Positions 4,467 through 24,593 of a stretch of 64,000 nucleotides of DNA are shown piece after piece. This DNA comes from Escherichia coli (lineage in GTDB: Bacteria > Pseudomonadota > Gammaproteobacteria > Enterobacterales > Enterobacteriaceae): assembly GCF_051903065.1 (NCBI RefSeq), contig NZ_CP178440.1; one strand, given 5' to 3'. A model generated the notes under the pieces. That model was not told the DNA's origin and ran no database searches. It saw nothing but the letters and a program-made list of their open reading frames with translations. The translations under genes were made by a program, and so were the position numbers. Within the stretch, counting starts at the first letter, position 1. Every line of letters starts with the position of its first letter.

Positions 4467-4820
4467 TTAATTTATTAGCTTCATCGCATTTTTTTTGGTC
4501 TCTTCATCACTTTTTTGCTCTTGTTGTGAAGAGGATTGAGTAACTATTGAAGAATTAAAATCGGCCATCTCTTTTGGAAATAGCGATCTCAATATATTCA
4601 CGATATCTGAAAATGTGGTTTCTTTCGTCAGCAGCTCACATAAAAGGAAAGGGGTCCGGGGATCTTGTCTGTATAAGGCCAGACCTGCCGTCAGTGCGGC
4701 CCGGTTAAGGCGGCTTCGTTCCCCTTGCGGGATACTGTCCAGTGTATCACAAACAATTTTATCTGTTTGATTTACATCTGGATTTAGTTTGAAGGCAATG
4801 GTTCTGCGCTTGTCCATCAT
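4467..4820 (-). CDS. parR: Plasmid partition adaptor ParR (StbB), type II partition system
   Basis: 117-aa ORF immediately downstream of and overlapping parM; matches R1/R100 ParR from memory. Confidence 0.8.
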   Translation of the reverse strand: MMDKRRTIAFKLNPDVNQTDKIVCDTLDSIPQGERSRLNRAALTAGLALYRQDPRTPFLLCELLTKETTFSDIVNILRSLFPKEMADFNSSIVTQSSSQQEQKSDEETKKNAMKLIN

Positions 4821-5782
4821 TAATTACCTATGAGATACATACCGTTAACTAAATCATATTGAGAGTTATTGGTTTTGAAAAAACGTTCATCACGAATCTG
4901 TGTGTGTTTTTTTACTGCATCGCATATTAATTCTGCGCCACCGCCTATAACCATAACATGAGTATAACCAGAAAATTCATTGAGCGTATTTAATACACGT
5001 TGCTCAAGTTTACGAAGTGCGTCATTCATTGCTTCGGTGACTATTGATATTTTGTTCTCATCATTAATTCGTTGCTTCAGATAGTTGTTGTCTTTTCTGT
5101 GAATAATTATATCGTCAGCAAGATAGCTACTTCCTTTTGTTCTCGCAAGAGAAAGTGCATCTTTTACTGCAGATGTGACCAGAGATACACCAAGAGATGA
5201 GTCTCCGTATATTTTACTGATCCCCGATAATTTCCCCATTACCTGAGAAATATCTAATGTGGTGCCCCCGAGATCTATAATTAATAAAGAATCTAACTCA
5301 TCCAGTTCTTGTAGAACTTCATAACCTGCCGGTATAGATTCAGGCATGACTTTTACATCTTTTATTGTGAATGTATCCCCACCATTTAATGTAATTTTTT
5401 TCCGGAAGTTTGCTTTCTTACGCTCAATATTTTCCGTATTGGGTTGGTTATTTCTGTCGTAATACTCTGTCAGAGGAAGTGTGCAAACAATATCCACTTC
5501 GCTTACCGGCAGACCACTGGTCAGTAAGGCGTGGTGCACCGCAACGACATTAACGTCGCTGTATTGCCATGCGATATTGGTTGTGACTACAGCATCCGGG
5601 CTGATTGGATCAAATGAATACTGTTCGCCGTTCAGTGTGTAGTTAAAGACCTTTTTATCACCAAAAGAGACTGCCCACTCGCGTTTGAAGCTGTTCGGGC
5701 TAATGTGCTGTTTAATTGTTCCGTCGTTTTCCTGCCACTGTAGTTTGATGTTTGTTGAACCGTCATCAATGAATACCAACAT
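4820..5782 (-). CDS. parM: Actin-like segregation ATPase ParM (StbA)
   Basis: 320-aa [20 protein letters not shown]... with DLGGTTLD phosphate-binding motif; near-identical to R1 ParM as recalled. Confidence 0.9.
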
Positions 5783-5960
5783 TTATAAAACTCCTTATGG
5801 TGTTTTTTTGGTGTGTGTTTGGGTATGTTTTGGGTTTTAAGTGGGTTTATTTGTCAAGTTTACCCCATTTTAACCATCAATCAATGATTATTTGTCTTGT
5901 TTTGGTGTTTTATTGGGTTGGGTGTGGGTTGTTTTTGGGTTTTGTTTGGCGGGTAACAAA
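5783..5960. promoter_or_regulatory. parC-like centromere/promoter region upstream of parM (GT-rich short direct repeats)
   Basis: Repeated ttttgg / gggtt(t) units on both sides of the presumed promoter, position relative to parM. Confidence 0.5.
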
Positions 5961-6295
5961 AGATGTCGCCGGGCTCCTCTTTTTACTGCGCCGGCTGACG
6001 CGGCGCGGCAGGAACGCTGCCTGTGGTCAGTGTCCCGCGTCCGGCGGGCACGGGACGGGCGCTTTTACCGCTCCCGGCTGGCGTCAGTGACAGTGTACGC
6101 CAGCCAGTCGCCCTTTCTGATGAACGCCCTTCAAGCCGCTTTCGCGGCATAGCCTTGCCGTCAAACAGACGACGGCTGCGGTATTCCACGGTCGGCCTGA
6201 CCCGTTACCGGACGCGGTGAACAGCCCACAGGCAGCGGGGAACGGGCACCACAGGGGTGCCCTCCCGGTGCCCTCTGTAAGAGAAGGAGGCTTTT

Positions 6296-6979
6296 ATGTC
6301 CCGTTTTATCCTGGGTGACTGCGTGCGAGTTATGGCCACGTTTCCGGACAATGCTGTCGATTTCATCCTCACCGACCCGCCGTATCTCGTCGGTTTCCGT
6401 GACCGTTCCGGGCGCACCATTGCCGGTGACGTTAACGATGACTGGCTGCAACCTGCCAGTAATGAGATGTACCGCGTACTCAAAAAAGACGCGCTGATGG
6501 TGAGTTTCTATGGCTGGAACCGTATTGACCGCTTTATGGCAGCCTGGAAACGCGCCGGATTCAGCGTTGTAGGGCATCTCGTCTTCACCAAAAACTACAC
6601 ATCGAAGGCCGCATATGTGGGCTATCGCCACGAATGCGCCTATATCCTGGCAAAAGGCCGTCCACGTCTGCCACAAAACCCGCTGCCGGACGTGCTGGGC
6701 TGGAAATATTCAGGCAACCGCCATCACCCGACGGAAAAGCCTGTTACCAGCCTGCAACCACTGATTGAGAGCTTCACACACCCGAACGCGATTGTGCTGG
6801 ACCCGTTTGCAGGCAGCGGCTCAACCTGCGTCGCCGCCCTTCAGTCCGGACGCCGGTATATCGGTATCGAGCTGCTTGAACAGTATCACCGTGCCGGACA
6901 GCAACGACTGGCCGCCGTGCAACGGGCCATGCAGCAGGGGGCCGCGAATGATAACTGGTTTGAACCGGAGGCTGCGTAA
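6296..6979 (+). CDS. Orphan DNA methyltransferase, beta-class (DPPY motif near N-terminus, FAGSGST AdoMet motif near C-terminus), N6-adenine or N4-cytosine
   Basis: Motif order IV then I read in translation; no adjacent restriction endonuclease gene. Confidence 0.75.
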   Translation: MSRFILGDCVRVMATFPDNAVDFILTDPPYLVGFRDRSGRTIAGDVNDDWLQPASNEMYRVLKKDALMVSFYGWNRIDRFMAAWKRAGFSVVGHLVFTKNYTSKAAYVGYRHECAYILAKGRPRLPQNPLPDVLGWKYSGNRHHPTEKPVTSLQPLIESFTHPNAIVLDPFAGSGSTCVAALQSGRRYIGIELLEQYHRAGQQRLAAVQRAMQQGAANDNWFEPEAA

Positions 6980-7201
6980 ATGAACTATGCCGGACACGAA
7001 AAACTTCGCGCCGACGTGGCGGAGGTGGCCAACACCATGTGTGACCTTCGGGCCAGGCTGAACGATATGGAGCATCGCTGTCGCTTTGATTCCGATGTGC
7101 TTGTTGAACGCCTGACACGCCAGACGCTGTATCGCGCCAATCGCCTGTTTATGGAGGCGTATACCGAAATTCTGGAACTGGATTCCTGCTTCAAAGATTG
7201 A
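6980..7201 (+). CDS. Hypothetical small protein (73 aa), start overlaps methyltransferase stop (taaATG)
   Basis: ORF; translational coupling geometry. Confidence 0.4.
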   Translation: MNYAGHEKLRADVAEVANTMCDLRARLNDMEHRCRFDSDVLVERLTRQTLYRANRLFMEAYTEILELDSCFKD

Positions 7202-7214
7202 GAAGGAGACGAGA

Positions 7215-7649
7215 ATGTACGGAACATGCGAAACGCTCTGCCGGGAGCTGGCAGCGCAGTATCCGGGAGACGCGCCGCTGATGCTGGTTGTCTGGTCCCC
7301 GGAAGAGATCCAGGCCCTCGCTGACGGAATGGATATTTCCCTGTCCGATCATGAAATCAGGACCGTCCTGGCGCGCCTGGAGGACATCCCGGAAGACCAG
7401 CGAATTGAGTCCGGTATTTCTTCCGCCGCGGCGATGGAGATTATCAGCAACGTGAGCGAAAACCGCCAGGTGACCGTTCCGGCTGAACTGCTGGCGTCCC
7501 TGATTCAGACCGCTGAACAGGCATTGTGGAAACGTGAATGGGCCGCCCGGGATCATGGCCTCGCCGTCCCGGAATGCGTCACCCGCCGTCAGGCGGTGGT
7601 TAATCAGGCCCGCACCCTGCTGAAAAACAACACACGCGAAAACGACTGA
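7215..7649 (+). CDS. Hypothetical leading-region protein (144 aa)
   Basis: ORF with RBS gaaggagacgagaATG; conserved-hypothetical of IncF leading regions as far as I recall. Confidence 0.5.
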   Translation: MYGTCETLCRELAAQYPGDAPLMLVVWSPEEIQALADGMDISLSDHEIRTVLARLEDIPEDQRIESGISSAAAMEIISNVSENRQVTVPAELLASLIQTAEQALWKREWAARDHGLAVPECVTRRQAVVNQARTLLKNNTREND

Positions 7650-7693
7650 TGTTATCGCCGCCTGCGGGCGGCGATTCAGGGAGACCATGAATC

Positions 7694-8464
7694 ATGAACG
7701 AAACGCTGAATGCACTGATTTGTCGCCACGCCCGTAACCTGCTGCTGGCGCAGGGCTGGCCGGAAGAGACGGATGTTGACCAGCGAAATCCGAACCATCC
7801 GGGCTGGATCAGCATTTACGTGCGGCTGGATGCGCCCCGGCTGGCGACATTACTCGTTAACCGCCACGATGGCGTGCTGCCGCCGCACCTGGCCTCCGCC
7901 ATTCAGAAACTGACCGGAACCGGGGCGGAGCTGGTACTGTCCGGCAGTCAGTGGCAGTCGCTGCCGGTACTTCCGGCAGACGGAACGCAGGTGTCTTTCC
8001 CGTATGCCGGTGAGTGGCTGGCAGAGGACGAAATCAGGGCAGTTCTTGATGCGGTACGCGATGCAGTACGCTGTGTCAGTTACCAGGTGGCAGAAGATAC
8101 GCGGCGTATCCGGGCGGCGCTGACCACAACCGGTCAGACGTTACTGACCCGCCAGACGCGCCGCTTTCGCCTGGTTGTGAAGGAAAGCGATCACCCCTGC
8201 TGGCTCGATGAGGACGACGAAAACCTGCCCGTGGTGCTCGATGCCATCCTGAACCGGGGCGCACGTTTTTCGTCGGTGGAAATGTATCTGGTCAGTGAGT
8301 GTATTGAGCATATCCTGTCCAGTGGGCTGGCCTGCGATGTGCTGCGTATACCGGATGAACCGCCCCGCCGCTGGTTTGACCGTGGTGTTCTGCGGGAGGT
8401 GGTCCGGGAAGCCCGGACCGAAATCCGCAGCATGGCGGATGCCCTGGCAAAAATCCGGAAATGA
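7694..8464 (+). CDS. Hypothetical leading-region protein (256 aa)
   Basis: ORF; no recognised motif. Confidence 0.5.
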
Positions 8465-8879
8465 TGACACTGGCGGGGTAAATCCCCGCCTTTTTCCTGC
8501 CGGTCCCCGGACAGAGCACAAAGGAAGTCGCCGCCGGCTCCGCTTTACCCGGCCATGCAGAGCATGGCCTTGTGGTTTTTCAGTTATGTGGCCTCAGCGT
8601 CGTGTGCGGGCTGTGCCGTGCCTCCATCTTAGCCGGGCTGGCGTTGATGCAAGGGTACGCTTCGCCGCTGCGGTCACCCGGTCCCTCCTTCCCGTCTGCC
8701 GTGATTTTCCGGTCGTTCGCCCGCTCAGGTTTCGCGGCCTCACCCTGCAACTCCCGCCAGCCGTGTGCGTCAGGCTGCGGCTTCCCTTGCGCCCCTGCAT
8801 CCCCGCCTTATCGCCCGGCTTTTATGGAGGCACGGCACCGCCCGGTGTCGCGGAATATGTGAACAACGGAGGAAATCCC

Positions 8880-9305
8880 ATGCAGTATGCGAAACCTGTC
8901 ACTCTGAACGTTGAAGAGTGCGACCGTCTCTCCTTTCTGCCTTACCTGTTTGGCAACGATTTTCTGTATGCCGAGGCGTATGTGTACGCGCTGGCGCAAA
9001 AAATGATGCCGGAATATCAGGGCGGCTTCTGGCACTTCATCCGCCTGCCGGACGGTGGCGGTTACATGATGCCGGATGGCGACCGTTTCCACATGGTGAA
9101 CGGTGCAAACTGGTTTGACCGTACCGTGAGTGCTGATGCCGCAGGCATCATCCTGACCTCCCTTGTGATTAACCGCCAGTTGTGGCTGTACCACGACAGC
9201 GGGGATGCAGGACTGACCCAGCTTTACCGGATGCGCGATGCGCAGTTGTGGCGTCACATCGAATTTCACCCCGAATGCAACGCGATTTACGCGGCTCTGG
9301 ACTGA
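8880..9305 (+). CDS. Antirestriction protein, KlcA/ArdB family
   Basis: 141-aa protein from ATG 8880 (RBS aacggagg); DRLSFLP and [15 protein letters not shown] segments resemble KlcA; the 336-aa ORF-track version is an N-terminal over-extension through GC-rich non-coding DNA. Confidence 0.7.
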
Positions 9306-9351
9306 TTAACGGACGGGGCGGCAATGCCGCCCCTGTAAAGGAGACGAGAAC

Positions 9352-9774
9352 ATGTACTGTACTGTTAAAGAAATCATCCGCGATGTACTGGATACAGACG
9401 TGCCGGACAGTGAATGTGTTTTTGCCGTGGTGCTGACCCGTGGGGATGTGCGTCACATAGCCCAGGACTGGAACCTGTCAGACGATGAGCTGGAAACCGT
9501 CATGCAGCGGCTGGACGATGCCTTTGAGCATGGTGCGGATGTCAGCGTTGTTCACGACGTTGTTCGTGAACTGATGGAAGAAAAGCGCGCCAGCCGTCAT
9601 GTGACAGTCCCGGCGGTGATGCTGGAAAAAGTGATGGCGCTGGCAGGCAGTGAAATGAAGCGCCTGTATGCCGTCGGGAGTGAGAACGGGGGCGACGGTG
9701 ACGCATTCGTCAGGGAGGAACGCGAAGCAATGGACGTTGTGTTACAGGCGCTGGACGGGGAGACGATGTCATGA
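9352..9774 (+). CDS. Hypothetical leading-region protein (140 aa), acidic C-terminus
   Basis: ORF with RBS aaaggagacgagaacATG. Confidence 0.5.
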   Translation: MYCTVKEIIRDVLDTDVPDSECVFAVVLTRGDVRHIAQDWNLSDDELETVMQRLDDAFEHGADVSVVHDVVRELMEEKRASRHVTVPAVMLEKVMALAGSEMKRLYAVGSENGGDGDAFVREEREAMDVVLQALDGETMS

Positions 9775-9962
9775 ATATCAGCACAGAAACCCGCGAAATT
9801 CTGCGTAATTACAGGGCCGTGATTAATGCGCGGCGTCGTGAAATGGGGCAGAAACCGCTCACCACCGCGCAGATTGTTGATGAAATCTGCGATTTTGTGG
9901 CGAATCAGCAGGCGGTTTTCCTGGGCGGTCACTACATCTTACAGGGCAGCAGAAACAGGTGA
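9771..9962 (+). CDS. Hypothetical small protein (63 aa), start overlaps upstream stop
   Basis: ORF; ATGA overlap with preceding gene. Confidence 0.4.
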   Translation: MNISTETREILRNYRAVINARRREMGQKPLTTAQIVDEICDFVANQQAVFLGGHYILQGSRNR

Positions 9963-10155
9963 TACAGGGGCAGGCGGTGGAGGCCGCCTGTCAGCCCGCG
10001 CGAAAACCCCTGGCAGGCTGACGCCTGCCGGAAGGGAAGCGGGCCACGCTGGCGCGTCGCCCGTTACCCTTCCCGTCTGTGATGTGTCTGACTCAGGAGT
10101 GTTTCTTTCTTATGTTGCGGAACTGTTCCTGATGTTGTTGTTGTTCCTTTATCTG

Positions 10156-10763
10156 CTGCTCTGATTCTGACTACTGCAGTGTTGTTCTGTCTGCCGGGCG
10201 CACCTTCGGCTCCCGGCTGCCTGGCGGCATCCGGTCGTCAGGCCCGACTCCGACAGGCAGCTGCTGGCGCACCTGCCAGTCTCCGCCGAACCCGCTGGCG
10301 CGGCTTCGGGCTGCCGCTACGGTCCGATGCGTGAAAACCCCGGGCTTGCAGCGACCGTTCCGGTCGCGCCGCCTCTGTCGCGCCGTGGCCTGCGCTCCTG
10401 GCATCCCGGCAAAAGGCCGCCGGGATGTAAGGGGCAACGCCGTTTCGCGCACGCGCTCTCCGTCGTTGCGGCGGGTCCCTGCTCATTGCCTGCCGGGTGC
10501 CACACACCCGTATGAGTCCCTGTCGCCGGGGGCTGATACAGCCACAACCTGCCGCACTGACTGTCCAGGGTAAATGAACAGCCCACAAAATTTTTTACCC
10601 AAAACCCGGTAAAAAATTTTGCGTTCTGCCCAGGACAGGTGCGTCAGGCCGTGGCAGTGATGCCCCTTGCGGCGAAGGTTCTCAAACGGGTGAAGTTCAT
10701 ACCACAGGGAATACAGCAGCAGGTTCCCGCGAAACGTCAAAACCGCGGCTCCCGAAACTCAAC
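10156..10763 (+). promoter_or_regulatory. Frpo/ssi-like structured repeat, copy A (candidate single-strand promoter / priming element)
   Basis: About 608 bp sharing long identical blocks with copies B and C; contains a 14-bp perfect inverted repeat at 10585-10598 / 10608-10621; ORFs called inside on both strands are artefacts. Confidence 0.65.
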
Positions 10764-11003
10764 GGGTGATGTTCTTTAAAAATCAGGATTTATTTCAGGC
10801 TCCGGCAATACGCATTTATTTGTTCTGTCAGTCATCCGGCTGGCAGGTAATGAGAACGCAGGAACAGAAGGAGGAAAACACCGTAGAACGTCAGACGCAG
10901 ATATGAAAAAAGCAGGTCAGGGACCTGCTTAATCCACGCCGTAAGAATTGCGCAACCAATTTTGACGGCATTGTTAACCAATTTGTCATAAGGAGTTTCA
11001 TTT

Positions 11004-11234
11004 ATGACAGTAAGTATTGTTTCACCTTCCGCAGCGGCTGTAAAGCCCCGCCGTCATCCCCGTTTCAGACGCGAAGACATCCCCGCGCCGGAAATTGACC
11101 CCGTGCTGAAAGCCTTCGGGCGACACATTGCCCGGAGTTTTCACCGGGGGCGTGGTGTACACATCCCCGCCATGAAAAACACGGCCTTCGGGCAGGTGCT
11201 CCGCACACTCGAACTGAAACGCGCTTTTAACTGA
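11004..11234 (+). CDS. Hypothetical small basic protein (76 aa) first gene after repeat copy A
   Basis: ORF with RBS aaggag 9 nt upstream of ATG. Confidence 0.4.
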   Translation: MTVSIVSPSAAAVKPRRHPRFRREDIPAPEIDPVLKAFGRHIARSFHRGRGVHIPAMKNTAFGQVLRTLELKRAFN

Positions 11235-11285
11235 TGAGGTGAGCCGCCCCGCGAGGGGCGGCAACAGACGGAAGGAGAACATTTT

Positions 11286-12647
11286 ATGACATTAGCAGCC
11301 ATCACCATGACCGCCCCGGAAGCCGCCAGCCCTGTGCAGATGTACCGCGCGACCTACTCACCGGATGACAACAAACTGCGCCTGTATGCCGCGTCACGCC
11401 TCGACCCGGAGACGTATAAAAAAGTGCATGATGCTGGTTTTCGCTGGGCACCCAAACAGGCGCTGTTTGTCGCGCCGGCCTGGACACCGGGCCGGGAAGA
11501 CGTGCTCCTCTCACTTGCCGGAGAGATTGAGGATGAAGACAGCACGCTCGCTGAACGTCAGGAAGCACGGGCGGAGCGGTTTACCGGATACAGCGGAAAG
11601 CGGGCCAGTGAATCCGCACAGGCACTTGATGAAGTGGAAAGACTGGCCGCGATGATCCCGCCCGGTCAGCCCATTCTTGTGGGGCATCACAGCGAACGCC
11701 GCGCCCGTCGTGATGCGCAGCGTATTGAAAACGGCATGAAACGTGCCGTGATGCTCTTTGAACGTGCGGAATACTGGGAAGAACGCGCGCGGTCGGCACT
11801 GCTTCACGCGAAGTATAAAGAACGTCCGGACGTTCGCTGGCGTCGTATCAAAAAAATCGAAGCTGATTTGCGCAAGGCTGAAAAGACCATTGCACAGTCG
11901 CAGAAATATCTGACGATGTGGCGGGCTGAATCGCTGGATCTGAATATGGCAAAACTCATCAGCAGTCATGACCATATCAGCGCCTGTTTCCCGCTGGATA
12001 CGTATCCGCGCCCGGCAGAAAAAAGCCAGTATGAAGGAAGTCGATCGTTATGGTCGGCCCTGGATGATGACATCATCACCACGGAGCAGGCCCGCGAAAT
12101 TGCGATCCGCTGTCATGAACGGCAGATCCAGCGTCAGCAACGCTGGGTTAACCACTATCAGAACCGCCTGATCTATGAGCGTGCCATGCTGGACGAAAGC
12201 GGCGGCGTGGTTACCCGGACACAGGATTTTGAGCCGGGCGGACAGGTTTTCAGCCGGGGCGAGTGGCTGACCATCATCCGTGTGAACAAAAGCAACGGGG
12301 CGGTGAGTTCAGTCACAACGCCAAATTACAGTTTTCTCGGGTACAGCGGCACGATGAAAGTGACGCCCGATCGCATCACGGACTACAAAGCACCATCGGC
12401 AGAAGAGGCTGCCGTCGCCAGTCAGGCCGCGAAGCGTCCGCCGGTAGTCAACTATCCGGGGGAAGGTTTCCGGGAAATGACAAAGGCACAGTGGGCCGCC
12501 CTGCCCCGGGACTGTAAGGCCGTGCGCAGTGTGGCAGAAGCAGAAGACCACGGGGCATACCGCTACCGCCGCACAATGGACAATAATTTCCGCCTGGTGA
12601 ATGTGTATATCACCGACATGAAAATCACGGAAATTCCACAGAAATAA
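11286..12647 (+). CDS. Hypothetical large leading-region protein (453 aa)
   Basis: ORF with RBS ggaaggagaacattttATG; conserved in IncF leading regions as far as I recall; function unknown. Confidence 0.6.
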   Translation: MTLAAITMTAPEAASPVQMYRATYSPDDNKLRLYAASRLDPETYKKVHDAGFRWAPKQALFVAPAWTPGREDVLLSLAGEIEDEDSTLAERQEARAERFTGYSGKRASESAQALDEVERLAAMIPPGQPILVGHHSERRARRDAQRIENGMKRAVMLFERAEYWEERARSALLHAKYKERPDVRWRRIKKIEADLRKAEKTIAQSQKYLTMWRAESLDLNMAKLISSHDHISACFPLDTYPRPAEKSQYEGSRSLWSALDDDIITTEQAREIAIRCHERQIQRQQRWVNHYQNRLIYERAMLDESGGVVTRTQDFEPGGQVFSRGEWLTIIRVNKSNGAVSSVTTPNYSFLGYSGTMKVTPDRITDYKAPSAEEAAVASQAAKRPPVVNYPGEGFREMTKAQWAALPRDCKAVRSVAEAEDHGAYRYRRTMDNNFRLVNVYITDMKITEIPQK

Positions 12648-12694
12648 GGTATATCCCCCCGGGAAAATCCCCGGGGGATGACGGAGATAATGAC

Positions 12695-13258
12695 ATGCAC
12701 AGTCAGTTAAGAGAACGTATCCGGCTGATGCGCGCAAGGCTGGATAACGCCGCGCCGGTTGCTGAAATCCGGGCTGAATCTCAGCTTTTTGTGACTCCTG
12801 CCCCGGTCTGTGATCGCCTGGTGATGCTGGCGGAGATCAGCAACCGTGATCACATTCTGGAACCCTCTGCCGGCACCGGGGCCATACTGCGGGCGATTCG
12901 GGATACCGCGCCGGGGGCCATGTGTGATGCGGTGGAAATCAACAGCGGGCTGGTCCGGTATCTGCGGGAAAATTTTAACGGTGTCAGGGTTCAGTGTGGC
13001 GACTTCATGGAATGGCAGCCGGCGCAGTATTACAGCCGGGTTATCATGAATCCGCCGTTCAGCCACGGGCAGGATATCCGGCATATCCTGCGGGCCTTTT
13101 CCCTGTTGCGTCCGGGTGGCGTGCTGGTCGCCGTCTGTCTCAACGGACCACGCCAGCAGGAGAAGCTGTTACCGTTTTCTGACGTCCGCGAGGAGCTGCC
13201 GCGCGGCACGTTTGCTTATACCGATGTCCCGACGATGATTATTCGTCTGCGTGCCTGA
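12695..13258 (+). CDS. Small putative AdoMet-dependent methyltransferase (187 aa), gamma-like motif order (EPSAGTG then NPPF)
   Basis: Motifs read in translation; too short to include an obvious target-recognition domain. Confidence 0.6.
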   Translation: MHSQLRERIRLMRARLDNAAPVAEIRAESQLFVTPAPVCDRLVMLAEISNRDHILEPSAGTGAILRAIRDTAPGAMCDAVEINSGLVRYLRENFNGVRVQCGDFMEWQPAQYYSRVIMNPPFSHGQDIRHILRAFSLLRPGGVLVAVCLNGPRQQEKLLPFSDVREELPRGTFAYTDVPTMIIRLRA

Positions 13259-13464
13259 AGACGCCGGGCAGGCGGGAGGATAAATGCCCGTCTGCCCGCG
13301 CCGGGAAAAGACCGCGCGCCGGTGGCGCTGAAAGGGGCCGCGCTCACGCGCCGCCCCTTTCATTACGCGGACGTTCTGATGGGGGCTTCTGTTTCTTCAT
13401 GCCTGTCATTTGTCTGTTACTGATGTTGTTGTTCCTGCTACTGCTACTGTTCTTCTTTTTCCTG

Positions 13465-14074
13465 CTGCTCTGATTCTGACTACTGCAGTGTTGTCCCGTC
13501 TGCCGGGCGCACCTTCGGCTCCCGGCTGCCTGGCGGCATCCGGTCGTCAGGCCCGACTCCGACAGGCAGCTGCTGGCGCACCTGCCAGTCTCCGCCGAAC
13601 CCGCTGGCGCGGTTTCGGGCTGTCGCTACGGTCCGATGCGTGAAAACCCCGGGCTTGCAGCGACCGTTCCGGTCGCGCCGCCTCTGTCGCGCCGTGGCCT
13701 GCGCTCCTGGCATCCCGGCAAAAGGCCGCCGGGATGTAAGGCGCAACGCCGTTTCGCAAACCGCGCTTCACGTCGTTGCGGCGGGTCCCTGCCCGTTGTT
13801 GTGTCCGGTGCCATTCACCTGTTTAAGCCCCTGTCGCCGGGGGCATAGACAGCCACAACCGTCTCCGCCAGTCCAGGGGTGAAATGCACATCCCGCAAAA
13901 CTTTTTGCCCGGAAGCAGGCAAAAACTTTTGCGGTCTGCCCCCGGACAGTCGTTTCCGGCCGTGGCAGTGATGCCCCTTGCGGCGAAGGTTCTCAAACAG
14001 GTGATGGTGAATACCGGAGGGAACAAAGAGCAGGTCCCCGCAAAACGTCAAAACCGCGGCTCCCGAAACTCAAC
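13465..14074 (+). promoter_or_regulatory. Frpo/ssi-like structured repeat, copy B, immediately upstream of ssb
   Basis: 610 bp, nearly identical to copy C (a few mismatches), more diverged from copy A; inverted repeat cgcaaaactttttgcc / ggcaaaaacttttgcg. Confidence 0.65.
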
Positions 14075-14115
14075 AGATGATGGGGGCTGAAAACATCAAC
14101 AGAAGGAGACACATC

Positions 14116-14951
<836 letters not shown>

Positions 14952-15591: not shown

Positions 15592-16411
15592 GGCACTGTT
15601 GCAAATAGTCGGTGGTGATAAACTTATCATCCCCTTTTGCTGATGGAGCTGCACATGAACCCATTCAAAGGCCGGCATTTTCAGCGTGACATCATTCTGT
15701 GGGCCGTACGCTGGTACTGCAAATACGGCATCAGTTACCGTGAGCTGCAGGAGATGCTGGCTGAACGCGGAGTGAATGTCGATCACTCCACGATTTACCG
15801 CTGGGTTCAGCGTTATGCGCCTGAAATGGAAAAACGGCTGCGCTGGTACTGGCGTAACCCTTCCGATCTTTGCCCGTGGCACATGGATGAAACCTACGTG
15901 AAGGTCAATGGCCGCTGGGCGTATCTGTACCGGGCCGTCGACAGCCGGGGCCGCACTGTCGATTTTTATCTCTCCTCCCGTCGTAACAGCAAAGCTGCAT
16001 ACCGGTTTCTGGGTAAAATCCTCAACAACGTGAAGAAGTGGCAGATCCCGCGATTCATCAACACGGATAAAGCGCCCGCCTATGGTCGCGCGCTTGCTCT
16101 GCTCAAACGCGAAGGCCGGTGCCCGTCTGACGTTGAACACCGACAGATTAAGTACCGGAACAACGTGATTGAATGCGATCATGGCAAACTGAAACGGATA
16201 ATCAACGCCACGCTGGGATTTAAATCCATGAAGACGGCTTACGCCACCATCAAAGGTATTGAGGTGATGCGTGCACTACGCAAAGGCCAGGCCTCAGCAT
16301 TTTATTATGGTGATCCCCTGGGCGAAATGCGCCTGGTAAGCAGAGTTTTTGAAATGTAAGGCCTTTGAATAAGACAAAAGGCTGCCTCATCGCTAACTTT
16401 GCAACAGTGCC
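15592..16411 (+). mobile_element. IS26 copy 2 (820 bp)
   Basis: Exact 14-bp terminal inverted repeats; flanking 8-mers gaccgcat and ttgtgaac. Confidence 0.95.
15655..16359 (+). CDS. tnpA: IS26 transposase
   Basis: Identical translation to the other copies. Confidence 0.95.
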   Translation: MNPFKGRHFQRDIILWAVRWYCKYGISYRELQEMLAERGVNVDHSTIYRWVQRYAPEMEKRLRWYWRNPSDLCPWHMDETYVKVNGRWAYLYRAVDSRGRTVDFYLSSRRNSKAAYRFLGKILNNVKKWQIPRFINTDKAPAYGRALALLKREGRCPSDVEHRQIKYRNNVIECDHGKLKRIINATLGFKSMKTAYATIKGIEVMRALRKGQASAFYYGDPLGEMRLVSRVFEM

Positions 16412-16907
16412 TTGTGAACCTTATTGATGATCGTACCGATGATATTTTGTATGGAAGGCCATGGTACAAAAAATGGACGATGGGGAGAATGATCTCATTT
16501 AACACATCTTCGCCTTACGCCAATGCTAATGGAAGATTAAGAAAGTGGGCAAAAAATAATAATATCAGTTTAAAGTAAGCATCAGAATGAAATTATATGG
16601 ACGAAAAATTTCTCTATTAACTGCACCATGGCTGGTAAAATCTCTTACCCTTGATGAAAATACAGGTTCCGTTACTGTTACGGTCGGAATCGCTGAAAAT
16701 ACCTATAACCATCGTAAATGGTTCCACTTTGATACCTGCCTGTTCATTACCCAGTGCGCCGTAAAGCCCCGTCCTTCAGGGCGTGGAGGATGTCAAATTA
16801 GTAGAAGCCGATGCTGGGAGCAATGTTCCACTACGGGAAGCTGAATATGGCGTTCTGAGCCTTCCTACAATTATCGGGGAAGCCCCATCTGCGTACTCCG
16901 GATTTTT

Positions 16908-17035
16908 GTTTATATGATCATGGGATTATATGATTATATCATTTTGTAACTATTTGATTATGTAATTTTATGATTGCATAATTTTATGAATATGAGATTA
17001 TTTGAATACTTGGCAGAGGTACTATTTGAACAAAG
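16908..17035. promoter_or_regulatory. Array of about 7 degenerate AT-rich direct repeats (TT(A/T)TGA(T/A)T) upstream of parA; candidate centromere/operator
   Basis: ttatatgatca, ttatatgattat, tttgattatgt, ttttatgattg, ttttatgaata, ttatttgaata, tatttgaaca read at roughly 11-12 bp spacing. Confidence 0.5.
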
Positions 17036-17046
17036 GGGAGAGGTGA

Positions 17047-17670
17047 ATGCCTAACGTGATAGCATTTTTAAATGGTAAGGGGGGGGTGTCTAAGACAACC
17101 TCGGCAGTTAATATTGCTACTGCTCTTGCTCGTAAGGGTTACAAAGTTGTTGTTGTGGATACCGATCCCCAGGGAAGTGTTAGTAACTGGTATGATGACA
17201 GTAAGTGTGTTTTTGATGTAGCGGAAGCTACGGCAGAAAAAGAAATTTACCGTTTGCGGAAGGCGCTTCCTTTGCACGATTTTATCATTATTGATGGTGC
17301 TGCTGCGATTTCGGCGATATCGGCGGCTGCTGTTATGGTTTCTGATCTTGTTATTATTCCAGTTACTCCTTCGCCGCTTGATTTTGCTGCGTGTGGCGCG
17401 ATATTGGCAGTGATAGAAGCTCGTCAGGATTTACGCCCGGTGATTGCTCGCTTTTTGATTACTAAAAAAGTACAGCAAACGCATATGTTATCTTTGCTGA
17501 AAGAATCTATTGCAGAAACAAGCATACCAGCATTAAAAACAGGAACGTCGTACAGGCAGTCATATATAAGATCTATGCTGGATGGTGGTACTATATTTGA
17601 TACAAAAGATAGTGCTGCTAAAGGTGAAATATCAGTTATTACAGAAGAAATACTTGGACTATTAAAATGA
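17047..17670 (+). CDS. ParA-family partition ATPase (small, type Ib-like)
   Basis: Deviant Walker [11 protein letters not shown] at N-terminus, 207 aa. Confidence 0.85.
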
Positions 17671-17873
17671 GTAAAATGAAACTTGGGAATCATAAGGCAA
17701 CAAACACTGCTCTGGATGCACTGAAGAAACCTGCGGGAGCAACCAGAAAGTTACAAATGAATATTCCAGAAGAGTTACATCTTGCATTTAAATTAGCTTG
17801 TGTGGAAGATGGCATTGATATGACACAGGTAAATATAGAACTCATTCAAAACTGGTTAAAGAGTCGTAACTGA
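17667..17873 (+). CDS. Small partition partner protein (ParG-like, probable ribbon-helix-helix centromere binder)
   Basis: 68-aa ORF overlapping parA stop; basic N-terminal tail then short structured domain. Confidence 0.5.
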
Positions 17874-18182
17874 TAGTGTTTCAGCCAGTCGTAATCTGCG
17901 ACGCAAACAAAAAGCGCTGTCCCGCAAGCTCAATGCGGCACTCAACATCCGGCAAAAAGGAATACAGGAACTACAGGCGACGGGACTCGTCGTCACTGCC
18001 CATGGAGACCAGCGTAAATCCGTCGTACAGAAGAGGATAAAATGGGAGAGCAGTTATCGATTCCCTATCCGGGCAGCCCGTTTACGGGCCGTAAGTAACG
18101 AAGTTGGATGCAAATGTCAGATCGTGTGCGCCTGTTAGGGCGCGGCTGGTAAGAGAGCCTTATAGGCGCATTTGAAAAACCT

Positions 18183-18206
18183 CCGGCTATGCCGGAGGAT
18201 ATTTAT
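18183..18206. terminator. Bidirectional rho-independent terminator hairpin (cctccggc ... gccggagg) flanked by A/T runs
   Basis: Perfect stem with T-run on the minus strand about 80 nt downstream of the adhesin stop. Confidence 0.5.
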
Positions 18207-18284
18207 TTATCGAGTTCGGTGACCGCCTGGACGGTCACTTCTGAGACAAGGCATTTACACAGAATCTTAAACAGGCTCGCTAAT

Positions 18285-19775
18285 TTACCACCCAATGGCA
18301 AAACCAGCTCCTAAGTTTGTATCACCACCATTGTTCCATGATGTGTTGACTCGTATGTTAGCATTCTGGCTCACTTTATATTGAACTCCGGCTGCGATTG
18401 CTTGAGCATCACGATAATGCCCCACGCCCATACCAAATGAAAAGCGCTCATTATTAACATAAGGAATTGATGAAATAGCGGTAACTCCGGCAATACCCGC
18501 ATTAGCACGCTTTTCGACTCTATCTATTTTTTTATTCATTTGTGAGAATCTTTGCTCATTTTTCTGCTGTAAATCATTTAATGTTTTATTGAAGTTTTTA
18601 CCTAATGTATCAACGCTAGATGCAGTATATTTGTTTGCCATTTCTAGAGTGTTTAAATCACCTTGTTCACGGAGTCTTTTCTCTTCATTGATTGCACTTG
18701 TTCTGGCTTTTTTTTCTTCATTTATTCTTGCAACTACTGATTTGCTGGGGTCTTTTTCTATATTTTTAATTTCATCTTCACTCATGCCTATAGCTTTAGT
18801 GACAACATCTAATTGGGACATATTCACAGCATCTGTAGGATTTACGCCCCCGGCAAGATTCGTGATTCTTCTGTTTATCATGGGCTCTGTCGTTGTTGCT
18901 TCCCTTCCTAAAGATACAACACCATTCTTACTATCTGTGTTCTCTACAGCGGTATATTTAGATACAGTATCATCATATTGATTATGCGTTTTCGATCTTG
19001 CCCCAAGAGCAATACTGCCTTTTGAATTAGACTCAGATAAATATCCAATGGAAACAGAATCAGTTTCCTGAGAGGCTGAATATGATCCTAATGCAATACT
19101 ATTTTTACCAATGGAATGAGACTCTAATCCTATGGCAGAACTGCCAGAGCCAATTGATAATGATTGACTACCCAATGCTGTACCAAATTCACCAACCACC
19201 GTCGAAAAGGAACCTACTGCCGTTCCTTCAATATTGTGGGAACTTGATTTATATCCCATTACAGATGACGCATATTGATTCCCATATTTCTCCTTAGCAT
19301 GAGGATCAACAGATGAGTCAACAGAAATATGTCCATCAGCGGATACTGTTATTTTTTTACCACTCACATCTAAGGATGAATTATTTTCAGGCAATTTAGT
19401 TACTGAAGCTTTGTTACCGATTAAAGTTGAATAGTTTCCTTCTGAATCAATTTTCGATCTGGATCCAACTATAGTCGAAAAAGTCCCTGCTTCTGTTGCA
19501 GAATCGTATCCTATTACTACTGATGCTCCTGCTCCTCCTTTTTCTGGTATATTCAAAGACTTAGAATTTGGACCTATTACTACTGAGAAATTTTGTTCTG
19601 ATCTTGTAGCATCACCAATTCCCTTACCAATAGCGATACTGCCAATACCTGAAGATTCTGTATTATCCGCACCAATAGCTATAGATGAGTAGCCTTTAGG
19701 ATTAGCAGCAAAAGAACAAAGGCTAACACCAGATAATGTTAATAGTATAGATGATAAAATTAATTTATTATTCAT
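18285..19775 (-). CDS. Trimeric autotransporter adhesin (YadA-like head repeats, coiled-coil stalk, C-terminal beta-barrel anchor)
   Basis: Signal peptide MNNKLILSSILLTLSGVSLCSFA, repetitive SIAIG/SxGxxS head motifs, heptad-rich stalk, C-terminal anchor ending GAGFAIGW. Confidence 0.8.
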   Translation of the reverse strand: MNNKLILSSILLTLSGVSLCSFAANPKGYSSIAIGADNTESSGIGSIAIGKGIGDATRSEQNFSVVIGPNSKSLNIPEKGGAGASVVIGYDSATEAGTFSTIVGSRSKIDSEGNYSTLIGNKASVTKLPENNSSLDVSGKKITVSADGHISVDSSVDPHAKEKYGNQYASSVMGYKSSSHNIEGTAVGSFSTVVGEFGTALGSQSLSIGSGSSAIGLESHSIGKNSIALGSYSASQETDSVSIGYLSESNSKGSIALGARSKTHNQYDDTVSKYTAVENTDSKNGVVSLGREATTTEPMINRRITNLAGGVNPTDAVNMSQLDVVTKAIGMSEDEIKNIEKDPSKSVVARINEEKKARTSAINEEKRLREQGDLNTLEMANKYTASSVDTLGKNFNKTLNDLQQKNEQRFSQMNKKIDRVEKRANAGIAGVTAISSIPYVNNERFSFGMGVGHYRDAQAIAAGVQYKVSQNANIRVNTSWNNGGDTNLGAGFAIGW

Positions 19776-19921
19776 AGCAACATATCCCACCAAAGTAGAT
19801 AGATTATCGTTATTCCTCGATAAATAAATTGCAATGTAAGATACATTAATCTTAACAATGTGTTAACATAAGAGGCTGTTAACACATTTAGTTTATAACA
19901 TAAAACATCATAAATATTAAG

Positions 19922-20741
19922 GGCACTGTTGCAAATAGTCGGTGGTGATAAACTTATCATCCCCTTTTGCTGATGGAGCTGCACATGAACCCATTCAAAG
20001 GCCGGCATTTTCAGCGTGACATCATTCTGTGGGCCGTACGCTGGTACTGCAAATACGGCATCAGTTACCGTGAGCTGCAGGAGATGCTGGCTGAACGCGG
20101 AGTGAATGTCGATCACTCCACGATTTACCGCTGGGTTCAGCGTTATGCGCCTGAAATGGAAAAACGGCTGCGCTGGTACTGGCGTAACCCTTCCGATCTT
20201 TGCCCGTGGCACATGGATGAAACCTACGTGAAGGTCAATGGCCGCTGGGCGTATCTGTACCGGGCCGTCGACAGCCGGGGCCGCACTGTCGATTTTTATC
20301 TCTCCTCCCGTCGTAACAGCAAAGCTGCATACCGGTTTCTGGGTAAAATCCTCAACAACGTGAAGAAGTGGCAGATCCCGCGATTCATCAACACGGATAA
20401 AGCGCCCGCCTATGGTCGCGCGCTTGCTCTGCTCAAACGCGAAGGCCGGTGCCCGTCTGACGTTGAACACCGACAGATTAAGTACCGGAACAACGTGATT
20501 GAATGCGATCATGGCAAACTGAAACGGATAATCAACGCCACGCTGGGATTTAAATCCATGAAGACGGCTTACGCCACCATCAAAGGTATTGAGGTGATGC
20601 GTGCACTACGCAAAGGCCAGGCCTCAGCATTTTATTATGGTGATCCCCTGGGCGAAATGCGCCTGGTAAGCAGAGTTTTTGAAATGTAAGGCCTTTGAAT
20701 AAGACAAAAGGCTGCCTCATCGCTAACTTTGCAACAGTGCC
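19922..20741 (+). mobile_element. IS26 copy 3 (820 bp), same orientation as copy 2
   Basis: Exact terminal inverted repeats; flanking 8-mers atattaag and accggaag. Confidence 0.95.
19985..20689 (+). CDS. tnpA: IS26 transposase
   Basis: Identical translation to the other copies. Confidence 0.95.
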   Translation: MNPFKGRHFQRDIILWAVRWYCKYGISYRELQEMLAERGVNVDHSTIYRWVQRYAPEMEKRLRWYWRNPSDLCPWHMDETYVKVNGRWAYLYRAVDSRGRTVDFYLSSRRNSKAAYRFLGKILNNVKKWQIPRFINTDKAPAYGRALALLKREGRCPSDVEHRQIKYRNNVIECDHGKLKRIINATLGFKSMKTAYATIKGIEVMRALRKGQASAFYYGDPLGEMRLVSRVFEM

Positions 20742-22029: not shown

Positions 22030-22083
22030 TGAACAACCACACCGCCCCGCCGGAGACGGGGCGGCAGCAAGGGAGATACCGTG

Positions 22084-23672: not shown

Positions 23673-23943
23673 CAACCTGGAGGCGGGCGCAGGCCCGCCT
23701 TTTCAGGACTGATGCTGGTCTGACTACTGAAGCGCCTTTATAAAGGGGCTGCTGGTTCGCCGGTAGCCCCTTTCTCCTTGCTGATGTTGTACGGGCATGA
23801 ACAACCTGACTTCAGGAAGGTCGTTTCCCTTCAGGAACGGGGATGAACGCGCGCCTGCGGCGCCCGTTCTTTTCCCCCGCCTTCTCTGGTTATGGCCTGT
23901 CAAAAATCACATCACCTTCCCTGTGATTATTCTCTTTTTCTTC

Positions 23944-24553: not shown

Positions 24554-24593
24554 AGATGATGGGGGCTGAAAACCAGAGAGAGGAGAAAGCAGG

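Follow-up and report, generated by a model that had tools for sequence, protein, structure and literature searches.

We asked what the genes lying between the parC-like centromere and ssb do in a 64,000-nucleotide stretch of Escherichia coli DNA (contig NZ_CP178440.1; hereafter the window). An earlier note had seen there one island of methyltransferases, an anti-restriction gene and seven ORFs of no recognisable function, and had proposed the latter as inhibitors of host immunity. Judged from its sequence, the segment at 5.8-14.1 kb is the oriT-distal half of a canonical leading region of IncF plasmids (R100/R1/pHK01-type). This region is already known and very widespread: more than 5000 plasmid records match it, of which 3118 cover at least 80% of it at 90-99.6% identity, and IncF plasmids, F and pESBL are annotated with their genes in one and the same order. 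The region also fits the islands described by Samuel and Burstein in 2024 (PMC11541004) in its T-strand orientation, anti-restriction genes, methylases, SSB and Frpo-like promoters; it does not differ from them in kind and is among their commonest examples. Two IncFII plasmids, pIncFIIEC181 (LC763833.1) and pO26_NIID080884_1 (NZ_AP027186.1), are 99.6% identical to it over the whole 6963 bp, show no difference within 6296-13258 and have the same order of parM, methylase, DUF1380, KlcA, DUF3560, class I methylase and ssb. In the window, an IS26 composite splits the ParB-like gene downstream of the region. This 5.15-kb composite is located between oriT and the 5.8-14.1 kb region; it delays the entry of the leading-region operons U1 to U3 and could interfere with U4, the operon next to them.

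The ten plus-strand ORFs predicted between parC and ssb are all present, exactly where the earlier note had placed them (Table 1). The parC iterons have start-to-start spacings of 11, 83 and 11 (repeat family D2). To locate oriT we used the sequence GTGGGGTGTGGTGCTTT, which we take to be the F-type nic site; its single exact match in the window is on the minus strand, with traM, traJ and FinP just beyond, and the leading-region position is thereby borne out. Since the nic is on the minus strand, the T-strand is the minus strand and the plus-strand genes can be read from it. Each of the ten ORFs has a GGAG-type Shine-Dalgarno sequence 5-10 nt upstream. Purifying selection acts on every one of them, with dN/dS of 0.00-0.41 relative to orthologues from F, pESBL or Klebsiella. 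Several had been thought to be translationally coupled, and indeed the stop codon of the 227-aa methylase gene directly abuts the start codon of the 73-aa ORF (TAA then ATG, gap 0, 6979/6980), while the 63-aa ORF overlaps the preceding DUF1380 gene by 4 nt (ATGA, 9771-9774). The 73-aa, two DUF1380, 256-aa, 63-aa and basic 76-aa ORFs are real, co-transcribed and conserved genes. Parts of the initial description had to be revised. The interval is not one island: it consists of three operons, with about 1.9 kb of structured non-coding leader. Moreover, co-orientation holds for the ten ORFs but not for an antisense RNA gene on the minus strand.

Table 1. Features of the leading region and its flanks in the window
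Feature	Position	Strand	Evidence or remarks
parM	4820-5782	-	parM/parR annotation; parC iterons upstream of parM
parC-like centromere	5795-5943		two clusters of 11-bp-phased iterons; left boundary of leading region
U1 leader	6015-6237	-	inverted repeat I2; T-strand hairpin, 30-nt arms, 163 nt between
U1: 227-aa beta-class N6A/N4C DNA methyltransferase, M.EcoGIX-type orphan ssDNA methylase	6296-6979	+	NCBIfam PRK13699
U1: 73-aa ORF, yfeB-type	6980-7201	+	PHROG 4830 (unknown function), E 1e-36; dN/dS 0.14-0.21
U1: 144-aa DUF1380 protein, paralogue a	7215-7649	+	Pfam PF07128, E 1.3e-52; pI 4.6; dN/dS 0.23-0.41
U1: 256-aa YcfA/YchA-type protein	7694-8464	+	dN/dS 0.17-0.22
Terminator-like GC hairpin, then T run	8472-8490	+	8 nt past stop codon of last U1 gene
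U2 leader	8607-8844	-	inverted repeat I1; T-strand hairpin, 32-nt arms, 88% complementarity
U2: 141-aa KlcA/ArdB-family anti-restriction protein (YubI / YfgB)	8880-9305	+	PDB 2kmg, 2wj9 matches
U2: 140-aa DUF1380 protein, paralogue b (YubJ)	9352-9774	+	very acidic, pI 4.4, 31 Asp+Glu; dN/dS 0.18-0.28
U2: 63-aa basic ORF	9771-9962	+	pI 9.8; dN/dS 0.07-0.14
U3 leader	10139-10771	-	one of three Frpo/ssi class 1 ssDNA-promoter repeat copies in window
AS-pc01 cis-antisense RNA gene	10907-11009	-	Rfam RF02875, 90.4 bits, gathering score 79
U3: 76-aa very basic ORF, first U3 gene	11004-11234	+	pI 11.9
U3: 453-aa YdbA protein, DUF3560 at residues 89-206	11286-12647	+	Pfam match
U3: 187-aa gamma-class-like N6-adenine methyltransferase catalytic domain	12695-13258	+	PDB M.TaqI catalytic domain, E 1.2e-6
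U4 leader	13448-14094	-	class 1 Frpo repeat preceding ssb; outside 6296-13258; fold z = -10.1
ssb	14116-14655		right flank
F-type oriT nic-site sequence	26710-26726	-	exact single match; sets minus as transferred strand

How, then, are these operons expressed? A search for sigma-70-like promoters on the plus strand found none anywhere in 5700-14200. Each of the three operons is preceded by a long hairpin-forming leader of 220-630 nt. The U1 leader (DNA fold -79.9 kcal/mol, z = -4.8) lies within a contiguous 93.6% match to pESBL and has as its homologue there the class 3 ssDNA promoter that was mapped ahead of M.EcoGIX. The U2 leader (z = -4.8) lies in a segment, 8521-8873, that shares 96% identity with what precedes ardA in pESBL; it is homologous to the class 2 ssDNA promoter found ahead of klcA and ardA in that plasmid and to ssp2 of F. 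Together, the U1 and U2 leaders share 94-96% identity with those of pESBL. In U3, a self-BLAST of the window pairs the leader with two further copies, at 13448-14082 and 23927-24561 (88.7% identity); positions 10335-10762 are 94% identical to the Frpo that precedes ssb in F, and the T-strand fold reaches -178.6 kcal/mol (z = -9.9).

Two relatives share U1 and U2. The match to the IncI1 plasmid pESBL (PMC7736820, PMC12672017) runs from the methylase through the 73-aa, DUF1380, 256-aa, KlcA and DUF1380 genes to the 63-aa ORF, with the class 3 and class 2 leaders; pESBL differs in having ArdA and other genes, in lacking the DUF3560/methylase unit and in its other type of relaxase and oriT (NikB). 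F (NC_002483) is collinear over U1 and U2 at 94% identity, leaders included, and has Frpo repeats in common with the window, but it lacks U3 (Frpo copy, 76-aa ORF, DUF3560 and 187-aa methylase), so that 10763-13643 is unmatched. Its leading region has been described as four operons under ssDNA promoters (bioRxiv 10.64898/2026.01.09.698686): Frpo1, Frpo2, ssp2 and the one that heads the M.EcoGIX-homologue operon. In pESBL the promoter classes were defined, and transcription starts for both U1- and U2-type leaders were mapped by 5' RACE in transconjugants; in F, the operons of KlcA and of the M.EcoGIX homologue were shown to be zygotically induced (PMC12672017). For U3, which F lacks, it is the Frpo-class leader and not the published RNA-seq that would point to the same behaviour.

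The identifiable products include the methylases and KlcA. The 227-aa protein scores 493.6 bits against NCBIfam PRK13699 (cut-off 244), with the motifs DPPY at residue 27 and DPFAGSG at residue 169, and is 91% identical to the sole methylase annotated in the pESBL leading region, which we take to be M.EcoGIX, an enzyme that acts on ssDNA and has a protective role (PMC7736820). The 187-aa protein has M.TaqI-like catalytic motifs, intact (PSAGTG at residue 57, NPPF at residue 119), and is without a target-recognition domain; the call of two methyltransferases was therefore correct. So was that of a KlcA/ArdB-type gene, whose product matches KlcA (PDB 2kmg) at E 1.8e-18 and ArdB (2wj9) at E 3e-7, and is 100% and 98% identical in amino acids to the pESBL and F proteins, respectively. 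Deletions of klcA were without effect in some plasmids (PMC11602122).

We propose that U1 to U3 are three zygotic induction operons with ssDNA-promoter leaders and restriction-protecting products, and we consider this explanation as a whole to be probable. The induction itself, the mapped starts, the ssDNA activity of M.EcoGIX and the effect of deleting ssp2 come from the F and pESBL literature; the anatomy, homologies, fusion and folding come from our analysis. During conjugation, the minus strand would pass into the recipient with its 5' end, made at the nic at about 26.7 kb, in the lead. On the single strand, each leader would fold into a long hairpin mimicking a double-stranded promoter, and the plus-strand genes would therefore be transcribed in a burst before complementary-strand synthesis, falling silent once the DNA is duplex. 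The identifiable products would shield the entering DNA against restriction, each operon in its own way: U1 through a promiscuous M.EcoGIX-type methylase acting on single-stranded DNA, U2 through KlcA/ArdB, which would block type I restriction, and U3 through a second methylation module made of two polypeptides, YdbA/DUF3560 and the 187-aa catalytic domain, which are fused in most other elements. U3 may have an extra off-switch in AS-pc01. This RNA gene overlaps U3 at its start and is equipped with a sigma-70-like promoter (11044-11016) and a terminator (10930-10910) of its own; it encodes a 5' hairpin complementary to the Shine-Dalgarno sequence and start codon of the 76-aa ORF. We infer that it is a switch for U3: its conventional promoter would find a template strand only after duplex conversion, and the RNA would base-pair with the ribosome-binding site that serves the 76-aa ORF, the first of U3.

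What of the seven ORFs of no recognisable function? Three belong to Pfam families (DUF1380 twice, DUF3560 once), the two DUF1380 paralogues being 29% identical (E 9e-9). None of the unknowns matched a known family in NCBIfam or PADLOC, and such PHROG families as they matched all lack an assigned function; the 73-aa ORF had no match in Pfam, and the 63-aa ORF matched no family. The 256-aa protein had no match in Pfam, NCBIfam or PDB, and its AF2 model was unusable (pLDDT 54); its family of 424 clusters, of which the best 120 are all at least 83% identical, is narrow and confined to enterobacterial plasmids. The 76-aa ORF has only a weak HU-like match (Pfam HU-CCDC81, E 7e-4) and has kept its synteny and 82% amino-acid identity in a plasmid of Klebsiella (dN/dS 0.12).

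It is conceivable, though on balance rather unlikely, that the small ORFs, instead of inhibiting defences, serve as accessories in establishment or housekeeping, for instance as regulators or chaperones of the methylase and KlcA, in complementary-strand synthesis, in ssDNA handling or in host reprogramming. Stoichiometric partnership is suggested by the tight coupling that joins the 73-aa ORF to the methylase and the 63-aa ORF to DUF1380b. In U1 and U2 alike, the lead gene is followed by a DUF1380 paralogue, and the 76-aa protein combines a very basic character with its HU-like match. M.EcoGIX itself is active only with a host partner, Pol I (PMC7736820), and a precedent exists in YfjB/HerB, an unknown from the same leading region recently found to reprogram the host and to block no defence system (PMC13370423). 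The ssp2 hairpin of F modulates DNA conversion by itself. Against such roles, a rifampicin experiment showed complementary-strand synthesis in F to be independent of plasmid-encoded proteins (bioRxiv 10.64898/2026.01.09.698686), and our NCBIfam and Pfam searches gave no homology to replication, repair or regulatory families.

We find it doubtful that the seven, or most of them, encode independent proteins that each inhibit a different host defence (restriction, CRISPR, BREX, abortive infection, SOS). The general premise stands, as leading regions are established hotspots, statistically enriched in anti-defence genes, and the families of these unknowns rank among the largest enriched (nos. 7, 14 and 28); the anti-defence reading was already published as a hypothesis by Samuel and Burstein (PMC11541004). 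The unknowns are, moreover, co-transcribed with KlcA and the methylases. Both DUF1380 proteins are strongly acidic (pI 4.4-4.6), as are some DNA-mimic inhibitors, which is only a lead. When ssp2 is deleted in F, the whole KlcA operon is unexpressed and transfer into restriction-proficient hosts falls 5-fold to more than 36-fold (bioRxiv 10.64898/2026.01.09.698686). However, no known anti-defence family was matched, and Supplementary Table 1 of PMC11541004 lists the enriched DUF1380, YubJ and DUF3560/YdbA families as 'Uncharacterized', with no Foldseek match to anti-CRISPR or anti-restriction structures except 31 ArdB matches among 3145 YubJ/YcgC members. The HerB case argues against this reading as well, as does the 453-aa ORF, which is half of a methyltransferase; the families, being narrow and limited to Enterobacteriaceae, would suit host-specific functions of any kind. 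Altogether, the anti-defence hypothesis is reasonable for the seven ORFs, but probably wrong for at least some of them.

The 453-aa ORF illustrates this last point. Among the 150 best cluster representatives of YdbA, 100 carry a C-terminal domain homologous to the 187-aa methylase; of the 102 representatives that reach 560 aa or more, 95 have this domain at their C-terminus. Fused DUF3560-methyltransferases of about 630-750 aa occur in phage-like and integrative elements (A0AAW7MGQ8 of Pandoraea, A0R835 of Pelobacter, metagenomic P0252-P0274); they are 43-57% identical across residues ~20-450 of YdbA, and their C-terminal domains match the 187-aa protein at E 1e-17 to 1e-40. In the window, by contrast, there are two genes 47 nt apart, the second with its own ribosome-binding site, and the Pro/Ala-rich linker is absent. 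A Klebsiella plasmid, 73% identical in nucleotides, has the two genes split in this way and likewise 47 nt apart, and both halves are under purifying selection. The AF2 model of YdbA is confident (pLDDT 94.1); a PDB relative was sought and none was found, while its AFDB matches include fusions named 'Methyltransferase type 11'. As the partner half of the adjacent methylase, 11286-12647 was ruled out as an independent unknown. It is improbable that the pair modifies RNA or protein rather than plasmid DNA, or that DUF3560 is itself an enzyme: the 187-aa protein does weakly match rRNA and protein methylase models (Erm/KsgA, PrmC; NCBIfam), fused relatives weakly match the Pfam 'MTS' small domain, and DUF3560 has a nearly invariant GQPILxGHHS loop, with His-His-Ser and many arginines (near-)invariant, and 'hydrolase' names in public annotation, but the best specific matches are to DNA methylases (M.TaqI, MADS MAD2 with PADLOC mad2 at E 1e-20, PHROG DNA-methyltransferase domains), NPPF is typical of N6-adenine DNA methylases, and neither a domain nor a structural match lies behind the 'hydrolase' label.

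By homology, YdbA and the 187-aa protein are the split form of a single fused DUF3560-methyltransferase common elsewhere, with DNA as the likely substrate. YdbA corresponds to the non-catalytic N-terminal module, may form a complex with the catalytic domain and may supply substrate binding or targeting. It would thus be a component of protective modification rather than an inhibitor, and this split DUF3560-methyltransferase is the one addition that the region offers beyond published knowledge.

All ten open reading frames (ORFs) that the earlier note had described between parC and ssb (6296-13258) were reproduced by our ORF list, at the same coordinates and on the + strand. The translational coupling that it had claimed was likewise found, at the TAA/ATG junction between the 227-aa methylase and the 73-aa ORF and at the ATGA overlap between the 140-aa and 63-aa ORFs. 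A GGAG-type ribosome-binding site lies 5-10 nt upstream of each of the ten and, in codon alignments with orthologues from F (NC_002483), the IncI1 plasmid pESBL and a Klebsiella plasmid, dN/dS is between 0.00 and 0.41 for all of them, including the three of 63-76 aa. Because of these Shine-Dalgarno sites and dN/dS values, which rule out an explanation by spurious ORFs, the ten are real genes and not chance ORFs. The idea of a single island had to be abandoned: according to its repeats and leaders, the interval consists of three units. U1 comprises the 227-aa methylase (6296-6979), the 73-aa ORF, a first DUF1380 protein (7215-7649) and the 256-aa YcfA protein (7694-8464); U2 comprises KlcA (8880-9305), a second DUF1380 protein, YubJ (9352-9774), and the 63-aa ORF (9771-9962); U3 comprises the 76-aa ORF (11004-11234), the 453-aa YdbA protein (11286-12647) and the 187-aa methylase (12695-13258).

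The region is ordinary and already in the literature. When it was compared by megablast with 72,556 plasmid records, at least 5000 records matched, and at least 3118 covered 80% or more of the 6963 bp at 90-99.6% identity; the matching plasmids are mostly conjugative (MOBF/MPF_F) and come from Escherichia, Klebsiella and Salmonella. The DUF3560/methylase unit alone (2.5 kb) was found in at least 4850 plasmids. In annotated neighbours the genes follow the standard IncF order, which runs parR-parM, methylase, 73-aa ORF, DUF1380, YcfA, KlcA/YubI, YubJ (DUF1380), 63-aa and 76-aa ORFs, YdbA (DUF3560), class I SAM methylase, ssb, DUF905, a ParB-like gene and psiB. We took GTGGGGTGTGGTGCTTT to be the F-type nic sequence. 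Because its match lies on the minus strand and is followed by traM (27041), traJ with its 5' UTR and FinP, the transferred strand (T-strand) is the minus strand, which enters 5' first and moves towards lower coordinates; therefore, the + strand genes are those that the T-strand can template. The earlier note had held all these genes to be co-oriented for early expression, and this is true of the ten ORFs, with the AS-pc01 RNA gene on the minus strand as the sole exception. The interval is 13.5-20.4 kb and about 25 ORFs away from nic, with the 5.15-kb IS26 insertion counted in. Relative to oriT, its ORFs are thus on the leading side and belong to the few dozen that reach the recipient first, as in the leading-region islands of Samuel and Burstein (2024), and KlcA, two methylases, ssb, psiB and psiA are all present.

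Features located in the window, with coordinates as searched
Feature	Coordinates	Strand	Remarks
parC	5795-5943		two clusters of 11-bp-phased iterons
U1 leader, long inverted repeat	6015-6237		repeat search
Terminator-like hairpin	8472-8490		just 3' of the last U1 gene
U2 leader, long inverted repeat	8607-8844		repeat search
Repeat of ~640 nt, three copies	10139-10771 (U3 leader), 13448-14094, 23927-24573		
AS-pc01 (Rfam RF02875)	11009-10907	minus	90.4 bits, gathering score 79
IS26 composite	15592-20741		two identical direct IS26 copies: 15592-16411, 19922-20741
ParA-like gene in IS26 composite	17047-17670		
502-aa gene in IS26 composite	18285-19793	minus	YadA-type adhesin-like, from sequence alone
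Match to nic sequence GTGGGGTGTGGTGCTTT	26710-26726	minus	exact, single occurrence

Several features of the leaders point to expression from single-stranded DNA. Folded as T-strand ssDNA, the four leaders in or beside the interval form extended stem-loops whose stability greatly exceeds that of shuffled controls (z = -4.8, -4.8, -9.9 and -10.1), and for the U3 leader the fold reaches -178.6 kcal/mol (20 shuffles, z = -9.9). Between the 640-nt repeat and the two Frpo elements of F, identity is 84-97%, and the U3 leader in particular matches the copy upstream of ssb at 94.2% over 431 nt and the second copy at 84%. Wen et al. described three classes of ssDNA promoters, namely Frpo/ssi (class 1), those upstream of klcA and ardA (class 2) and that upstream of M.EcoGIX (class 3), with transcription starts of the pESBL leaders mapped by 5' RACE in early transconjugants (PMC12672017). 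By its homology and its T-strand stem-loop, the U3 leader would belong to class 1 and is a putative promoter. Both shorter leaders are contained in a contiguous 93.6% match to pESBL (window 5958-10033), and window 8521-8873 is also 96% identical to the pESBL sequence upstream of ardA; homology thus groups the U1 and U2 leaders with classes 3 and 2, respectively. In F, which has no counterpart of U3, transconjugants show induction of the operons for the KlcA and M.EcoGIX homologues (PMC12672017). Moreover, Fraikin et al. divided the F leading region into four ssDNA-promoter operons, and deletion of ssp2, upstream of the KlcA homologue yfgB, reduced transfer into restriction-proficient recipients (bioRxiv 10.64898/2026.01.09.698686). 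A consensus scan of 5700-14200 found no sigma-70-like promoter on the + strand, and a single match in the 8.5 kb scanned against 3.3 +/- 1.9 expected from shuffles, a scarcity that is weakly suggestive of expression through single-strand hairpin promoters.

Other observations concern the same leaders. In some public records, ORFs annotated as 'hypothetical protein' lie wholly within hairpin/Frpo leaders at window 10171-10452 and 13480-13746 (minus) and at 4785-5090 of the F locus used for comparison (L003); they are probably annotation artefacts of GC-rich structured DNA. Around their ribosome-binding sites and start codons, parM (minus; 5767-5799) and the 76-aa ORF (10987-11019) are 73% complementary over 33 nt, and this inverted repeat, I3, probably reflects merely similar AAGGAG-N-ATG contexts. 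A chromosomal CRISPR spacer of K. pneumoniae matches the Frpo-class leader with 2 mismatches (window 10453-10484, minus strand). The same spacer is listed in a published Table 3 as 'intergenic, 2-4 hits per plasmid', and spacers against DUF3560 and SAM-methylase genes have also been reported (PMC6965323); therefore, host CRISPR arrays target the leading region.

We then considered the proteins with recognisable functions. The 227-aa protein scores 493.6 bits against NCBIfam PRK13699 (cut-off 244), carries its motifs in the beta-class order (DPPY, then DPFAGSG) and shares 206 of 227 residues (91%) with the sole annotated methylase of the pESBL leading region; homology and motif order indicate an enzyme of the M.EcoGIX type. 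M.EcoGIX is a promiscuous m6A methylase (at SAY) that acts on single-stranded DNA only and shields pESBL at entry in an orientation-dependent manner, and Fomenkov et al. noted that its homologues are numerous in IncF plasmids (PMC7736820). The 141-aa product of 8880-9305 aligns over residues 5-141 with the solved KlcA structure 2kmg (E 1.8e-18) and also with the ArdB structure 2wj9 (E 3e-7), a full-length homology that assigns it to the KlcA/ArdB family. ArdB(R64) and KlcA reportedly alleviate type I restriction, an activity that has also been inferred for YfgB of F (bioRxiv 10.64898/2026.01.09.698686), and negative results exist for the KlcA proteins of pB10 and RIP113 (PMC11602122).

The two larger U3 genes deserve to be treated together. 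The 187-aa protein resembles the M.TaqI catalytic domain (E 1.2e-6, PDB) and also matches PADLOC MAD2 (E 1e-20) and methyltransferase domains within very large phage proteins (PHROGs). Its SAM-binding and catalytic motifs are intact (PSAGTG at residue 57, NPPF at residue 119), and the chain, ending at residue 187, leaves no space for a target-recognition domain. The 453-aa YdbA matches PF12083 (DUF3560) with E 1.1e-36. A HMMER search of 1.84 billion cluster representatives returned 3899 relatives (E <= 1e-30 for 693); the N-terminal module that contains DUF3560 is conserved over about 440 aa and was matched in full length in 115 representatives. The fusion argument rests on relatives at 43-57% identity, many of which align to query residues ~20-450 yet measure 630-750 aa. 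A C-terminal extension homologous to the 187-aa methylase is present in 100 of the 150 best representatives (among those of 560 aa or more, in 95 of 102), and in 97 of these 100 the methylase domain is C-terminal to the DUF3560 part. AFDB50 contains such fusions as 'Methyltransferase type 11' in Pandoraea, Pelobacter and others, the fused genes are located in phage-like and integrative elements, and NCBIfam revealed no extra informative domains in the long polyvalent relatives. Apparent fusion proteins at 99% identity (e.g. P0005, P0025) were disregarded as probable frameshift or assembly artefacts. A Klebsiella IncFII(K) plasmid keeps the two-gene form with an identical 47-nt gap; there the nucleotide identity is 73%, and dN/dS is 0.10 (DUF3560 half) and 0.27 (methylase half). 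Given the homologous domain of the fused relatives and the kept two-gene form, the most plausible reading of 11286-12647 and 12695-13258 is one enzyme split between two genes.

Comparison with other plasmids shows that this unit is not present in all of them. F lacks the whole unit formed by the Frpo copy, the 76-aa ORF, the DUF3560 gene and the 187-aa methylase gene (window 10089-13643 against L003), and U3 looks like a cargo module inserted through duplication of the Frpo leader. In the IncFII(K) plasmid CP067449 of K. pneumoniae (locus L010, 3820-8382), KlcA and the 76-aa/DUF3560/methylase triad lie near oriT, with no ssb or psi genes between them, and a gene annotated as the DNA polymerase III theta subunit directly 3' of KlcA. 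In the present plasmid, the IS26 composite interrupts the ParB-like herB/yfjB gene, of which ~120 bp were lost, and no 8-bp target duplication was found at the insertion. Owing to this insertion psiB/psiA (22081-23234) now lie ~8 kb from their Frpo leader, a displacement that may impair early SOS inhibition.

U3 might be subject to a further control. The only sigma-70-like match of the scan (TTTACA, 17 nt, TG-AACAAT at 11044-11016) is positioned to start AS-pc01, for which a terminator is found at 10930-10910. In the first AS-pc01 hairpin, CUCCUUAUGAC is complementary to the start codon of the 76-aa ORF and to its Shine-Dalgarno site. The template of this RNA is the + strand, absent until the complementary strand is synthesised, so that AS-pc01 could silence U3 specifically after establishment and act as an off-switch for the DUF3560/methylase operon.

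What, then, of the remaining ORFs and their proposed anti-defence role? The DUF1380 pair are paralogues (29% identity, E 9e-9) and acidic (pI 4.6 for 144 aa, 4.4 for 140 aa), and their family is narrow (514 clusters); a PP-binding match of the first (E 0.009) was weak and treated as noise. The 256-aa YcfA/YchA protein had no match in Pfam, NCBIfam or PDB and belongs to another narrow family (424 clusters). Nothing informative was found for the 73-aa and 63-aa ORFs in PHROGs, Pfam and the family libraries. The 76-aa protein is very basic (pI 11.9) and matches HU-CCDC81 weakly, without backing in PDB or NCBIfam searches, which we keep only as a hint of an HU-like protein; its gene is not conserved upstream of distant DUF3560-methylase fusions. 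Samuel and Burstein described leading regions as anti-defence hotspots with Frpo-like promoters, and in their Supplementary Table 1 family 7 (DUF1380, YcgB/YceB), family 14 (YcgC/YubJ) and family 28 (DUF3560, YdbA) are entered as 'Uncharacterized', the last with some structural matches to 'Methyltransferase domain'; a Foldseek screen of the three gave no anti-CRISPR or anti-restriction matches except 31 ArdB in family 14 (PMC11541004). Since the same families appear in that table, the interpretation offered for the seven unknown ORFs amounts to a hypothesis already in print, applied here to one of the most frequent cases. It gains support from the leading-region setting, KlcA and the methylases, and not from the seven themselves, which in NCBIfam, PHROGs, PADLOC, Pfam and PDB showed no similarity to a characterised inhibitor and no informative match; the YcfA model was unusable and was discarded for the fold search (pLDDT 54, pTM 0.42; a shallow alignment of 24 sequences at >=83% identity). 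Our literature search found no experimental work on ydbA, yfgB, yffB, yfdA, yfhA, ycgB or the DUF1380 and DUF3560 families. Moreover, YfjB/HerB, a former unknown of the same leading region, turned out to be a host-reprogramming factor and not a defence inhibitor (PMC13370423), a precedent that may counsel caution. Altogether, the observation of the earlier note is confirmed and its interpretation is supported in part only.

The most likely scenario is that hairpin promoters would drive a transient burst of expression, yielding two methylation modules and KlcA, which would shield the entering plasmid from restriction, with five or six small accessory genes alongside. A bolder proposal, which we consider rather doubtful as a whole, is that YdbA and the 187-aa domain form a two-subunit, broad-specificity adenine methyltransferase serving as a second shield at entry only, mechanistically distinct from M.EcoGIX, and that the acidic DUF1380 pair are new protein-level inhibitors of a host nuclease. 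The arginine-rich helical module of YdbA would then replace the target-recognition domain and guide the enzyme to plasmid DNA that is entering single-stranded or has just been replicated. Two independent switches, the loss of the hairpin promoter upon duplex conversion and AS-pc01, transcribable only after conversion, would confine the module to the zygotic window.

As both the region and the anti-defence hypothesis are already in the literature, the finding adds little. Its modest additions, both open to testing, are the split DUF3560-methylase suggested by homology and a possible off-switch role of AS-pc01; groups working on this region may find it useful to study ydbA and the downstream methylase gene as one unit, and to consider that AS-pc01 may turn that unit off after establishment. 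In E. coli, Klebsiella and Salmonella, antibiotic resistance is carried mainly by F-like plasmids, and this very segment is found in thousands of them. Whether an incoming plasmid withstands the restriction systems of the recipient depends on these genes; therefore, knowing the role of each could suggest ways to block plasmid spread.
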